Counted from the first letter of the stretch, positions 41,839 to 44,969 are shown. The stretch is DNA of 53,890 nt from Candidatus Onthoplasma sp. (GCA_045598895.1 JAZRUZ010000036.1:1-53890), one strand, 5' to 3'. Program-made: numbers and translations. Notes: generated by a model from the letters alone, not told the origin.

Positions 41839-44328
41839 TTATCCAACACGATGTAAGTTTCTATACATCCATGGATTAAGTACTTGTCTATAGCCAGAAT
41901 CATGAGTACCATTAAAGTAATATTCATAAACTATTCTATCGGTTAAATAATCGGTTATAGTTAATGAGTCACCATGACTTGTTCTATATTCTCCAAGATC
42001 TATCTCGCAATAGTCTCCATATTCATATAAATTATTTCCATAGTCTGACACATCAGGTACAGTGTTAGCAGGAGTACCTGCTGGATAAGTTTCCTTATAT
42101 AGCCAATTATAGATATTTGCAAATTGAATATCTGTTAATTTGGTACCCATAAATACACAACGTTCTATCAACCTCAATGTTGATGGAATAACAACAGTTC
42201 CTGTTAATAGACAAGAATCTACATGTGTATAATCCATTTCAAAAGCACCTTGTCTTAAAGTAATTATAGAATCACCCAAATCAAGCGAAGTCAAACCTAC
42301 ACAATTTTTAAACGCCCAAGAACCTACTTCAGTAACTTTGTTTAAATCAAGAGCACCTGCAATACCTGAATTTTCAAAAGCACATGCTCCAATGCTGACA
42401 ACATTATTAGAAAATGACACACCTGAGTTCGCAGTTGTACCAGCAGCTAATGTAGTTAAATGACTACAGTATTTGAACATGTCTTTATCTACAAAAGTCA
42501 ATGAATTTGGTAATTTAACGCTTGTCAATGTATTTGTTTGTTCTTCTTCTTGTGTTGCGCCTGTATATGACATTCTAAACATACTTGCAGTATTAGTAAC
42601 ATTGGCCATATCCCAATTACTTAAATCAACACTTGTTAATGAAGCACATCTAGCAAACATAGCATTCATATTTGTTACTTTATCAACTCTCCAAGTTGGT
42701 AGACTTAAATTTGCACTAGTTAATGCATAACAACTATCGAACATACTTGACATATCTCTAGCTTCATTATTAGAAGTTAAACCATTAAGTAATGAAGTAA
42801 TACTTTGATTTAGTGAATTGCAATTCTCAAACATCATTGAGAAATCTCTGTTGTTCTCTACATCTAAAGAACCACCAATATTAGTTAACATTTGACAATT
42901 ATAGAACATAGCTCTTGTTGATCTAACTTGACTATTTATTTGACCAAGGTTGATACTAGTACTTAAGTTATTTGCAAACATTCCTGTTGCTATATCTAGA
43001 TTATTTAAATTTTTATCACTCAAATCAAATTGACAACAAGGCATATAAGCAAACATACCTTTAGCATTTCTCAATCTGTCAGTATAAAAATTAGTCATAT
43101 CTAATTCTGTACATGTTAACAAGCAATTTGGCAATAATGCAGGTAAGAAAATTTCAGGACTTACTTGAACACCTGTTTTATTTCCATACATTGTGGCTTC
43201 AATTGTCTTTTTATTTAAAGCTGCATCAACTATTTGTTCACTAGATGGTAAATCTATAGAATTACCACCCACTCTGTATGAACCATTGTTGGTTCCAGAC
43301 GTGTTAGCACAAAACAACAAACTGCTGTCACTAGGAGCAAAGATAGGCGAATCAGAAACTAAATAAACTTCAACCCCTGTTGTACCTAAAGTGGTAGCTG
43401 CCTCTTGTCCTGCGACACCTGCTACAACTTGTAAAGCCTGTTGTGAAATAGTACTAGGTTTAACTACTACAGAAATATTCGTACCATTTAATTTACCAAG
43501 TTCGTATGCTCCTGTCATATTTTCTGGAGCATTGAATGCTACTTTTGTAAACACAGCAGGACTCACCGTAACTTGGCTTCCTGCTTGCATTGACAAAGCA
43601 ATACTAGCCAAAGTTGAAACTTCACTAGCCCAATTATTAGGTAAATATACTGGGGCCAATTTTTGTAATTCTGAATATGCTATTTGTTTATTTGTTTCAG
43701 CTTGAGCAGCACTTACAGTTGCACTTGGAGTAACAGATAAATTGGCTTGTTGAATAGCAGCGACATCAACGTAAGCATACTTGTCACCAAATAATTCATC
43801 TTGTGTTGCGTTTACATCAATTACTTTATTATATTGTAAACTAACAGGAGTTCCATTATTTAATTTTCCTAATACACCTACTGTACTAGAAACATCACTT
43901 CCTGTCAATTGTCCATTACTACCAACTAAATAAGTATTTGTTCCGTTTGTTGCATAAGTATTTCCGTTAGCAACAAAGAATCCATAATTGTTTTTACCAC
44001 CAAGAATGTCATAATCACTACTGATATATGCTAGATAATATGCAGGGACACTACTATCAGTTAATTTTAAATCAATTTTTACATTGACCGTATCTCCTGG
44101 CATTAAATTGTTTTTGACATCAGTGCTATTTCTTTGTGCTGTTAATAGAATTTTTGTTCCATTAGTCGTGTTAGTATCAATAGCGAGTTCACCAAAAGAA
44201 AATTTTCCTTTTATTTCTACACGAGATGTAAAATATGCATACGCACCTGCTATACCAGCTATCGTAGAAAACAAAAACGCAAATATTATTACTAAAATTA
44301 TCTTTTTATTATATTTTTGTTTAACCAT
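41839..44328 (-). CDS. Secreted fusion protein: N-terminal TasA/camelysin-like module plus BspA/DUF285-type leucine-rich repeats (829 aa)
   Basis: Signal anchor followed by AYAYFTS (like a SipW-type signal). aa 1-200 are paralogous to the upstream 207-aa protein (PGDTV, AYYL, AIQQANLS). aa ~405-700 carry repeats such as MFxxCxxLTSxxLSNWDMANVTNTASMF. There is no LPXTG motif or C-terminal TM helix. Confidence 0.65.
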   Translation of the reverse strand: MVKQKYNKKIILVIIFAFLFSTIAGIAGAYAYFTSRVEIKGKFSFGELAIDTNTTNGTKILLTAQRNSTDVKNNLMPGDTVNVKIDLKLTDSSVPAYYLAYISSDYDILGGKNNYGFFVANGNTYATNGTNTYLVGSNGQLTGSDVSSTVGVLGKLNNGTPVSLQYNKVIDVNATQDELFGDKYAYVDVAAIQQANLSVTPSATVSAAQAETNKQIAYSELQKLAPVYLPNNWASEVSTLASIALSMQAGSQVTVSPAVFTKVAFNAPENMTGAYELGKLNGTNISVVVKPSTISQQALQVVAGVAGQEAATTLGTTGVEVYLVSDSPIFAPSDSSLLFCANTSGTNNGSYRVGGNSIDLPSSEQIVDAALNKKTIEATMYGNKTGVQVSPEIFLPALLPNCLLTCTELDMTNFYTDRLRNAKGMFAYMPCCQFDLSDKNLNNLDIATGMFANNLSTSINLGQINSQVRSTRAMFYNCQMLTNIGGSLDVENNRDFSMMFENCNSLNQSITSLLNGLTSNNEARDMSSMFDSCYALTSANLSLPTWRVDKVTNMNAMFARCASLTSVDLSNWDMANVTNTASMFRMSYTGATQEEEQTNTLTSVKLPNSLTFVDKDMFKYCSHLTTLAAGTTANSGVSFSNNVVSIGACAFENSGIAGALDLNKVTEVGSWAFKNCVGLTSLDLGDSIITLRQGAFEMDYTHVDSCLLTGTVVIPSTLRLIERCVFMGTKLTDIQFANIYNWLYKETYPAGTPANTVPDVSDYGNNLYEYGDYCEIDLGEYRTSHGDSLTITDYLTDRIVYEYYFNGTHDSGYRQVLNPWMYRNLHRVG

Positions 44329-44345
44329 ATTTTATCCTCCTTCTT

Positions 44346-44969
44346 TTAATTTAAGCCATTTAACAAAGTGTATATTGAAGCACTCATACTTAAATTTGCT
44401 TGTTGTATTGCACATACACTACATTCTATTGTTTCATCACCACTAACTTGATCTTGTGTTAACGAAGCATCGATTAAAACCGGTATTTGGATACTATGTA
44501 CTGCCGAACTAGAAATTGAACCTGCAAACACACTTGGATTTGTAATTTCTGTAAATGCCCAAGTTGTTTGATTTATCTCATAAACCTTCTCACCATCGGT
44601 AGCGTATAATTTATTATTTGCCTCGAAGAAAGCATCGCAATCATTTGGTAAACTTAATACATTTGAATTAGATTTTGGAAAAATTAAATAGTACGCATCT
44701 TCACTATCATCTCTTAATTTTACATTTATATTAATTAGAACCGTATCCCCTGGCAATGCCTTAGCATTTGTTATACCATTAATAGTAAATGTCATTGATG
44801 TCTTATTATCTGATGTTGTATCTAATTCTATAATACCGAAAGATACATTATCTCCCATAATATATCTTGCTGTAAAATAAGCATACACCCCAGCAAAAAT
44901 AAGCACAGATATTAAAAATAATGACAATATTAAAAATATGTAACCTTTATTTTTCGTTTTTGCTTTCAT
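44346..44969 (-). CDS. TasA/camelysin-like secreted protein (207 aa)
   Basis: Signal anchor then GVYAYFTAR, LPGDTVLININVKL and CAIQQANLS. Lies 17 nt upstream of the 829-aa gene, so probably in the same operon. Confidence 0.6.
   Translation of the reverse strand: MKAKTKNKGYIFLILSLFLISVLIFAGVYAYFTARYIMGDNVSFGIIELDTTSDNKTSMTFTINGITNAKALPGDTVLININVKLRDDSEDAYYLIFPKSNSNVLSLPNDCDAFFEANNKLYATDGEKVYEINQTTWAFTEITNPSVFAGSISSSAVHSIQIPVLIDASLTQDQVSGDETIECSVCAIQQANLSMSASIYTLLNGLN

Follow-up and report, generated by a model that had tools for sequence, protein, structure and literature searches.

A candidate TasA-superfamily module joined to varied C-terminal domains in a gene family of gut anaerobes

Two neighbouring genes in Candidatus Onthoplasma sp., a low-G+C gut Firmicute, raise the question of whether a fibre subunit of the TasA type can carry an adhesin. 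Both lie on the minus strand of a 53,890-nucleotide stretch of DNA (GCA_045598895.1 JAZRUZ010000036.1:1-53890), which is a whole contig and is called the window below. They encode proteins of 207 amino acids (P0001, 44346..44969) and 829 amino acids (P0004, 41839..44328) and are 17 nucleotides apart. The TasA superfamily comprises ancient extracellular filaments of bacteria and archaea that are assembled by donor-strand exchange, and the bacterial members characterised to date are matrix subunits with a single domain, whose genes adjoin that of a dedicated peptidase. The initial annotation described the two window proteins as TasA/camelysin-like paralogs, the larger of which is fused to leucine-rich repeats (LRRs) of the BspA/DUF285 type, and proposed that together they resemble a fibre with a tip adhesin. 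The spacing of the genes, the paralogy and the repeats are borne out by our analysis, whereas the kinship to TasA and the proposed fibre need the qualifications given below. The window genes belong to a previously undescribed family, in which the predicted fibre-type domain is usually joined to varied C-terminal domains and is present in multiple copies per genome.

A family with varied C-terminal domains

The first ~200 residues of the two proteins are 35% identical over 203 amino acids (BLASTP, E 1e-28), and share the motifs AYAYFT(A/S)R, (L/M)PGDTV, AYYL, FF.AN..YAT.G and AIQQANLS. A word-indexed homology search with the 207-amino acid protein matched only that protein itself, so the family is visible only by exhaustive profile search. 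When a profile built from both paralogs was run in an exhaustive hmmsearch, 120 cluster representatives were detected at E<1e-3. Of these, 51 fall below 1e-10, and nearly all have the module at residues 1 to ~200. We kept 119 members for individual scans. Their C-terminal domains include DUF285 (20 members), LRR_8 (10), LRR_4 (9), LRR_5 (7), DUF6273 (5), GDSL lipase (2) and the Listeria-Bacteroides repeat (1), and many C-terminal regions have no match. A C-terminal extension is present in 46 of the 56 closest representatives (total length >320 amino acids), and nine are cargo-less.

A scan of genomes with a five-sequence alignment found 17 loci in five metagenome-assembled genomes, with three to four detected copies in each of four genomes and one in the fifth. 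Depositors labelled these genomes as uncultured Christensenella sp., Catabacter sp. or Clostridia bacterium, and the samples are from the human gut, including those of Hadza individuals. The G+C content of these 17 loci is low throughout (26-33%). A scan of metagenomes gave a single locus, and the family is known so far only from poorly studied gut anaerobes. Our full-text search of the literature found no account of bacterial TasA-type modules fused to DUF285, LRRs or other cargo. Judged from sequence, the family departs from TasA, CalY and BsaA in the predominant combination of module and cargo, the scattered genomic context, the lack of a linked sipW or tapA gene, and the host range among gut anaerobes.

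The 207-amino acid protein is a cargo-less member (family profile, E 4.5e-57). A lysine-rich n-region and a hydrophobic segment precede a predicted cleavage site, VYA↓YFTAR, and a predicted jelly-roll beta-sandwich follows. Its predicted signal peptide (residues 1-30, with A at P-1) is encoded at 44880..44969, as judged from an alignment with the TWA↓AFND site of TasA and from hydropathy. The 829-amino acid protein consists of five parts, which are encoded in succession on the same strand. Its N-terminal module (residues 1-205, 43714..44328) matches the family profile with E 1.6e-49 and has a predicted AYA↓YFTSR site. A middle region rich in A, S, L, V and T (residues 206-404, 43117..43713) matches no family. 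DUF285/PARCEL repeats, with units of the form MF..C..L...LS.WD..NVTN, occupy residues ~405-600 (42529..43116), and the BspA-type LRR_5 region occupies residues ~601-740 (42109..42528). The remaining ~89 residues are rich in Y, G and D and again match no family (41839..42108, including the stop codon).

The repeats are identified with good scores. LRR_5 (PF13306) is matched with E 5.4e-21 and 75.3 bits against a cut-off of 27.7, with the best stretch at residues 636-738. DUF285 (PF03382) is matched with E 1.2e-19 and a score of 70.7 bits (cut-off 25), and the PARCEL repeat model TIGR02167 with E 5.5e-10 and 38.8 bits (cut-off 30). The MF..C..L repeat cores lie at residues 474-620, and PHROGs families match the repeat region only. 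Surface proteins with BspA-type LRRs or DUF285 are usually lipoproteins or otherwise anchored. Residues ~405-740 of the 829-amino acid protein resemble such surface proteins of Mycoplasma, Listeria, Bacteroidota and Treponema, structural examples of which are PDB 4gt6, 4fs7 and TpLRR 6mlx. The match to 4gt6, a solved BspA-like LRR surface protein, has E 2.4e-11. Unlike in those proteins, the repeats are here appended to a TasA-type module.

A fusion of this kind could in principle arise from a chimeric contig, with a junction near 43700-43800, or could belong to a decaying duplicate. We take the fusion to be inherited, because the protein can be aligned colinearly with a 651-amino acid relative (P0006) from the module through the middle region into the DUF285 repeats, and because DUF285 is joined to the module in 20 of the 119 independent cluster representatives, which come from different samples. 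Also, neither open reading frame (ORF) is disrupted, each is preceded by a ribosome-binding site, and no residue that is invariant in the family has been lost from them. We therefore regard an artefact of assembly or annotation, which the initial annotation had named as a way in which its reading could fail, as extremely improbable.

Kinship of the N-terminal module

The widest evidence for kinship to TasA comes from the mature domain. Pfam matches to family members cover only positions ~3-72 of the 196 positions of Peptidase_M73, even in the four tested members that exceed the threshold of this model, and for this reason the mature domain was compared separately. Mature sequences of the close subfamily (37 sequences) align with nine mature members certified by Peptidase_M73 over 160 columns, which is the whole domain (99.0%, E 6e-18). 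When scanned singly, 32 of the 119 members match Peptidase_M73 (E<1e-3), 30 match TIGR04088, a model of the SipW-cognate signal (best E 3.9e-12), and five match the BsaA-family model. The TasA model and the TapA model are each matched by one member, the latter weakly.

A profile of 47 family sequences also aligns directly with TasA of B. subtilis, for which the query sequence was identical to that of PDB 8AUR. This alignment (hhalign, 90.7%, E 1.3e-6) spans TasA residues 6-72, which contain the signal peptide, the A↓AFND site, the donor strand (28-38), the self-complementing strand and the PGD strand. In a relaxed alignment free of signal peptides, the terminal AIQQAN strand of the family lies opposite EATQWN of TasA. 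The near-invariant positions of the module are A31, F33, G46, PGD at 77-79 and Q193. An AlphaFold2 (AF2) model made with the 47-sequence alignment has a mean predicted local distance difference test (pLDDT) score of 83.9 and consists of an N-terminal helix (residues 8-33) and a beta-sandwich. Confidence dips to 58-73 at residues 31-70, the counterpart of the switchable N-terminal strands of TasA. With only the two paralogs as input the model is poor (pLDDT 64).

Several results weigh against this kinship. The 829-amino acid protein reaches 17.0 bits with Peptidase_M73 (PF12389; E 0.0054, profile positions 3-71 only), below the cut-off of 22.5, and 17.3 bits with TIGR04088, below the cut-off of 19, and the 207-amino acid protein matches neither Peptidase_M73 in Pfam nor TIGR04088 in NCBIfam. 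Direct likeness to TasA is limited to the N-terminal ~70 residues, and with signal peptides removed the family profile aligns with TasA over 46 columns in the N-terminal region of the mature protein, at 55% and E 1.2e-4. A Foldseek search of the PDB, with a query that still carried the 33-residue transmembrane helix, gave no match at E<1e-3. The structures 5of2 (rank 17, E 0.022, TM-score 0.32) and 5of1 (rank 20, E ~0.02, TM-score ~0.3) stand among PliG, CUB and CPE-C sandwiches. Sequence and profile searches of PDB chains likewise found no TasA match, and their single match, to FliL, covers the hydrophobic segment; deposited TasA chains come without the signal peptide.

The module is thus placed as a divergent member of the TasA superfamily (Peptidase_M73) only by transitive profile evidence. 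In this respect the TasA/camelysin assignment of the initial annotation stands for the family through the alignments to certified members and to the N-terminus of TasA, and does not stand at the level of Pfam or TIGR04088 matches of the window proteins themselves. The resemblance to TasA (B. subtilis), CalY (B. cereus) and BsaA (C. perfringens) extends to a signal peptide whose cleavage site combines A at P-1 and T at P-3 with the aromatic F at P2' and a subsequent T/N-D, as well as a conserved first strand, a PGD strand, a terminal A-x-Q strand, a predicted jelly-roll beta-sandwich of ~170 residues and several paralogs per genome. Unlike these known proteins, which are single-domain and 200-260 amino acids long, most close members of the new family carry a large C-terminal cargo.

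Two other identities for the module were considered and rejected. Camelysin is classed as a metalloprotease (MEROPS M73), and neither window protein contains an HExxH motif; each module has zero or one histidine. The name 'peptidase' is itself regarded as a probable misidentification (PMC11580942). As for a type IV pilin, the lysine-rich n-region of the window proteins runs straight into the hydrophobic segment and the conserved motif follows this segment instead of preceding it. Class III signals of type IV pilins have a G↓F-T-L-x-E cleavage motif ahead of the hydrophobic helix.

Export, pairing and possible assembly

Both proteins are most likely exported by the Sec route with their shared TasA-superfamily module, as read from the predicted signal peptides, which are long and of Gram-positive type. 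Their predicted cleavage site, T/V/A-x-A↓(W/Y)-F-T in general form, imitates the SipW site of TasA. N-termini in the family consist of a lysine-rich n-region, a hydrophobic run (median 21 residues) and the motif T-(F/Y)-A-(W/Y)-F-T-D. In a logo of 112 members, T occupies P-3 in 92 and is followed by A at P-1, W or Y at P+1, F at P+2 (104 members), T at P+3 (97) and D at P+4 (87), in residue-for-residue alignment with T-W-A↓A-F-N-D of TasA. The next conserved positions within the first 21 mature residues form an F-G-x-I-x-L strand, ~10 residues past the cleavage motif. We infer signal-peptide cleavage at A↓YFT in the window proteins, where A at P-1 and F at P+2 are kept.

An aromatic residue at P2', such as F, makes TasA a poor substrate of LepB, so that its cleavage falls to SipW, a peptidase dedicated to the task (PMC10269814). 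The donor strand of TasA, residues 28-38, enters the following subunit, where a self-complementing strand gives way to it (PMC9674648), and the conserved segment that corresponds to this donor strand in the family is an indirect sign of polymerisation. In the 'exchange-and-lock' subgroup of BsaA proteins, an N-E-K triad forms an intermolecular isopeptide bond. At P+3 of the cleavage motif, a possible counterpart of N35 in BsaA, both window proteins carry T instead of N.

The closest homolog of the window module is in a 712-amino acid DUF285 protein (P0005, at 1825-3963 of locus L003). This protein keeps the rest of the module and does not have the AWFTD cleavage motif (…MLALLPGKDAEADFALNFG…), and it may undergo different processing or none.

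By analogy with TasA, BsaA and the archaeal tafi, we infer donor-strand exchange, co-polymerisation and an adhesive function for the window proteins. In the mechanism that we consider most likely, a signal peptidase whose gene lies elsewhere would cleave both proteins after export. The N-terminal segment thus released, beginning YFT and continuing to the F-G-x-I-x-L strand, would act as donor strand and enter the beta-sandwich of an adjacent module. Co-assembly of the cargo-less 207-amino acid protein with the cargo-bearing 829-amino acid protein would then give short filaments or oligomers with the LRR adhesin on display. The larger protein would thus act as a surface adhesin, in which the solenoid of DUF285/PARCEL and BspA-type LRRs binds and the N-terminal module attaches or polymerises. 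We rate TasA-type cleavage, donor-strand polymerisation and display of the adhesin by these two proteins as an even prospect.

Certain observations count against such an assembly. The window proteins have V or A in place of T at P-3, and A-R or S-R in place of D-K after A↓YFT, so that D at P+4 is lost. No box-B motif of signal peptidase I, of either the ER/SipW or the P type, occurs in any frame of the window and ~384 kb of related loci (438 kb together), where the sole match to the pattern is inside ribosomal protein L3. The cargo-bearing genes of most close relatives stand alone, with no short partner beside them. At one locus (L032), a 514-amino acid DUF285 fusion (P0007) is directly upstream of rpsJ-rplC-rplD, which is the chromosomal position of the window's 829-amino acid gene, and it too has no short partner.

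No Peptidase_S24/S26 domain is found among the precomputed annotations of neighbouring genes, and neither sipW nor tapA is found in the operon or in ~30 related loci. The initial annotation had noted the lack of sipW, tapA, sortase and LPXTG in the window, and motif searches and Pfam scans of the flanking genes agree. The tapA-sipW-tasA and sipW-bsaABC operons, in contrast, include the peptidase. The lack of a linked dedicated signal peptidase is shared with the CanX cannula subunits, which belong to the TasA superfamily (PMC12518558). A sortase-assembled pilus was also considered and rejected, since all frames of the window are free of LPXTG-like C-terminal signals and of the TLxTC sortase motif.

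The same observations bear on another explanation, in which the proteins are monomeric adhesins tethered to the membrane. Here the signal anchor would stay uncleaved and the sandwich would form a membrane-proximal stalk for varied binding domains, with no filament; the 207-amino acid protein would be a cargo-less paralog with a separate role in display or with none. A hydrophobic run of the median length is enough for a transmembrane helix, residues 8-33 form a single helix in the AF2 model, and no SipW or signal peptidase I is linked in the 438 kb searched. The N-terminal hydrophobic segment is the sole one in each protein, and neither protein has another anchoring device, such as LPXTG or a C-terminal transmembrane segment. 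The C-terminal extensions in 46 of the 56 closest members, together with the predominance of single-gene loci, also fit an autonomous module for surface display. Against this, the strongest conservation in the family falls on the TasA-type cleavage site (A at P-1, T at P-3 and F at P+2), which a passive anchor does not need, and cargo-less members of ~200 amino acids persist in several genomes. The characterised homologs TasA and BsaA are moreover cleaved and polymerise (PMC9674648, PMC11580942). Tethering, with the part that it assigns to the short protein, is the chief alternative to polymerisation, although we consider it rather unlikely. Also, the newest BsaA subunit has been proposed to be tethered to the membrane through its uncleaved signal peptide until SipW acts (PMC11580942), and tethering of this type would explain surface retention without LPXTG in a polymerising protein as well.

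The absence of an anchor motif in the 829-amino acid protein also fits release as a soluble LRR effector or binding protein, in which the N-terminal module would be a domain for export and folding, left after ordinary cleavage with neither polymer nor tether. Some family members carry enzymes, such as GDSL lipase, that might be free exoenzymes, and MbovP0145 of Mycoplasma bovis is reported to be a secreted DUF285 protein (PMC8707762). However, a beta-sandwich of ~170 residues and a conserved first strand in more than 100 clusters exceed what an export signal needs, and a general peptidase of the LepB type is not expected to cleave readily where P2' is aromatic (PMC10269814). Release in soluble form is accordingly improbable.

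Returning to assembly of the two proteins by donor-strand exchange, the question is whether the short protein and the fusion form a functional unit, as the initial annotation had suggested. A survey of relatives, which it had called for, found a tight pair of short and long genes at only two of six close loci, namely the window and L004, where a 198-amino acid gene is 8 nucleotides upstream of the gene for the 651-amino acid relative. A looser pairing of a short with a cargo-bearing member, 2.6 kb apart, occurs at L010. On a 553-kb contig of a distant lineage (L027), a cargo-less 187-amino acid member (10001-10564) is ~6 kb from a 954-amino acid member (16921-19785) that has a weak match to the N-terminal module (E 1e-16) and Listeria-Bacteroides (Flg_new) repeats. 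Short members are thus near cargo-bearing ones in three unrelated lineages, represented by the window, by L004, and by L010 and L027.

The short protein of the window scores 101 bits with its own long neighbour and 37 bits with the short protein of L004. The short partners at these two loci are therefore not orthologous, and the pairs derive from separate local duplications. Such separate duplications hint at selection for co-expression. By sequence comparison, the tight pair is not the conserved unit of the family. Since most close relatives, including the counterpart at L032, are single genes, a short subunit is not generally required. A short shaft with a tip adhesin cannot be a family-wide rule, and the functional unit proposed in the initial annotation is not supported in that form. 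If the module polymerises elsewhere in the family, cargo-bearing homopolymers or a shaft subunit encoded at another place would therefore be needed.

At L004, two further ORFs ~3 kb downstream of the pair encode proteins of 214 amino acids (5583-6239) and 192 amino acids (6251-6829) whose N-termini resemble TasA-type signals (GVTVAYLSG... and MLTLALFSDKK...). A helix-turn-helix gene and a RelA/SpoT-like HD_4-TGS gene lie between them and the pair, and L004 may be a larger, multi-paralog locus.

The arrangement of a subunit with an adhesin was initially thought to be without precedent, and this view is outdated. The tafi filaments have been assigned to the TasA superfamily (bioRxiv 10.64898/2026.01.04.697558). 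TafC, a two-domain subunit of the Tat-fimbriae (tafi) of haloarchaea, donates its first strand and, in the published model, initiates the filament and ends up at its distal tip (PMC11821415). A short major subunit, TafA, is encoded near TafC, which consists of an N-terminal pilin-like domain with a donor strand and a C-terminal binding domain, and by architecture TafC and TafA appear to be the closest analogue of the window pair. The systems differ in that tafi use Tat signals, whereas the lysine-rich n-regions of the window proteins have no twin arginine. Also, the taf locus encodes a signal peptidase (TafD), an adapter (TafE) and a membrane anchor (TafF), none of which is found here, and the cargo of TafC is laminin-G-like instead of DUF285/LRR.

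TapA of B. subtilis likewise is a minor partner protein encoded beside a fibre subunit. Its N-terminus resembles the TasA donor strand and nucleates assembly (PMC9674648, PMC10151520), and it donates its first strand to TasA (PMC9674648). TapA is taken here as having no full acceptor module of the TasA type, whereas both window proteins have a complete module. For operons with multiple BsaA/TasA paralogs, heteropolymers have been suggested, and fusions were not described (PMC11580942).

These comparisons allow a broader interpretation, in which the family builds modular display fibres. In uncultured gut Clostridia of the Christensenella/Catabacter type, the products of several genes per genome (at least three to four detected) that join a TasA-type handle to varied cargo (DUF285/LRR adhesins, DUF6273, GDSL esterases, Listeria-Bacteroides repeats or domains that match no family) would co-polymerise with cargo-less spacers of ~200 amino acids into heteropolymeric filaments of mixed function, with no linked SipW, TapA-like nucleator or sortase. 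Such fibres would be a new bacterial way to build multifunctional surface appendages. We regard this interpretation as doubtful.

If the module still polymerises, these organisms build filaments with adhesive or enzymatic activity in a way that has so far not been reported for bacteria, which would bear on how commensals of the Christensenellales type attach to hosts, other microbes and glycans. If it does not, a fibre subunit has been reused as a surface stalk. Either way, the family offers defined experimental targets, and its profile can annotate what are at present 'hypothetical proteins'.

Surroundings of the gene pair

Family genes are mostly single and scattered among housekeeping genes, unlike TasA-type genes, which are in a matrix operon; the host range is also different. 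The window fits this pattern. It has ~30-32% G+C and uses genetic code 11, and apart from the gene pair Pfam scans identify mainly housekeeping genes, such as the S10/spc ribosomal operons, tuf, fusA, glycolysis genes, prfA, prmC and murC.

The pair looks like a transcription unit of its own, given a terminator-like hairpin, a candidate promoter and two ribosome-binding sites, and the two genes are probably co-transcribed. The hairpin follows prfA (45151..45168, minus strand), has a 7-bp stem and a T run, and marks the upstream boundary of the unit as a consensus match only. A sigma-70-like promoter candidate, TTGACT-18-TACAAT, is ~90 nucleotides upstream of the 207-amino acid gene (45057..45086, minus strand) and has 10 of 12 consensus matches. 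Sites of this kind are no commoner here than in shuffled versions of the AT-rich region, and the candidate is therefore weak evidence. Both ribosome-binding sites are strong, with AAGGAGG ahead of the 829-amino acid gene and AGGGGTGG ahead of the 207-amino acid gene.

Between the gene pair and rpsJ, at 39650-41678, are two orphan ORFs of 515 amino acids (minus strand) and 151 amino acids (plus strand), neither with a family match. This is the part of the window with the lowest G+C content (0.267), and the 515-amino acid ORF includes a K/T-rich low-complexity stretch. The two ORFs look like an insertion, because at L032 the DUF285 fusion gene is directly upstream of rpsJ. They were considered as members of the module and rejected: they have no N-terminus with a TasA-type signal motif, lie outside the transcription unit described above and are absent at the syntenic position in L032.

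The gene pair has a Fic-domain gene ~4 kb away (49013-50032, plus strand). The distant short family member at L027 also has a Fic gene nearby, at 7709-8443 and ~1.5 kb away, and this recurrence is probably a coincidence. Further along, 50518-53766 on the minus strand encodes a 1082-amino acid protein with an N-terminal hydrophobic segment, a match to the GLUG motif (E 3e-5) and G/N/I-rich repeats. It is probably another large surface protein, of a family distinct from the TasA-like module.

Elsewhere, a family copy is directly upstream of rpmH-rnpA-yidC-jag in several metagenome-assembled genomes (L001, 535-1608; L002; L009, 9908-11563; L023, 9806-10927; with L021 nearby). This is a conserved position, close to the gene for the YidC insertase.

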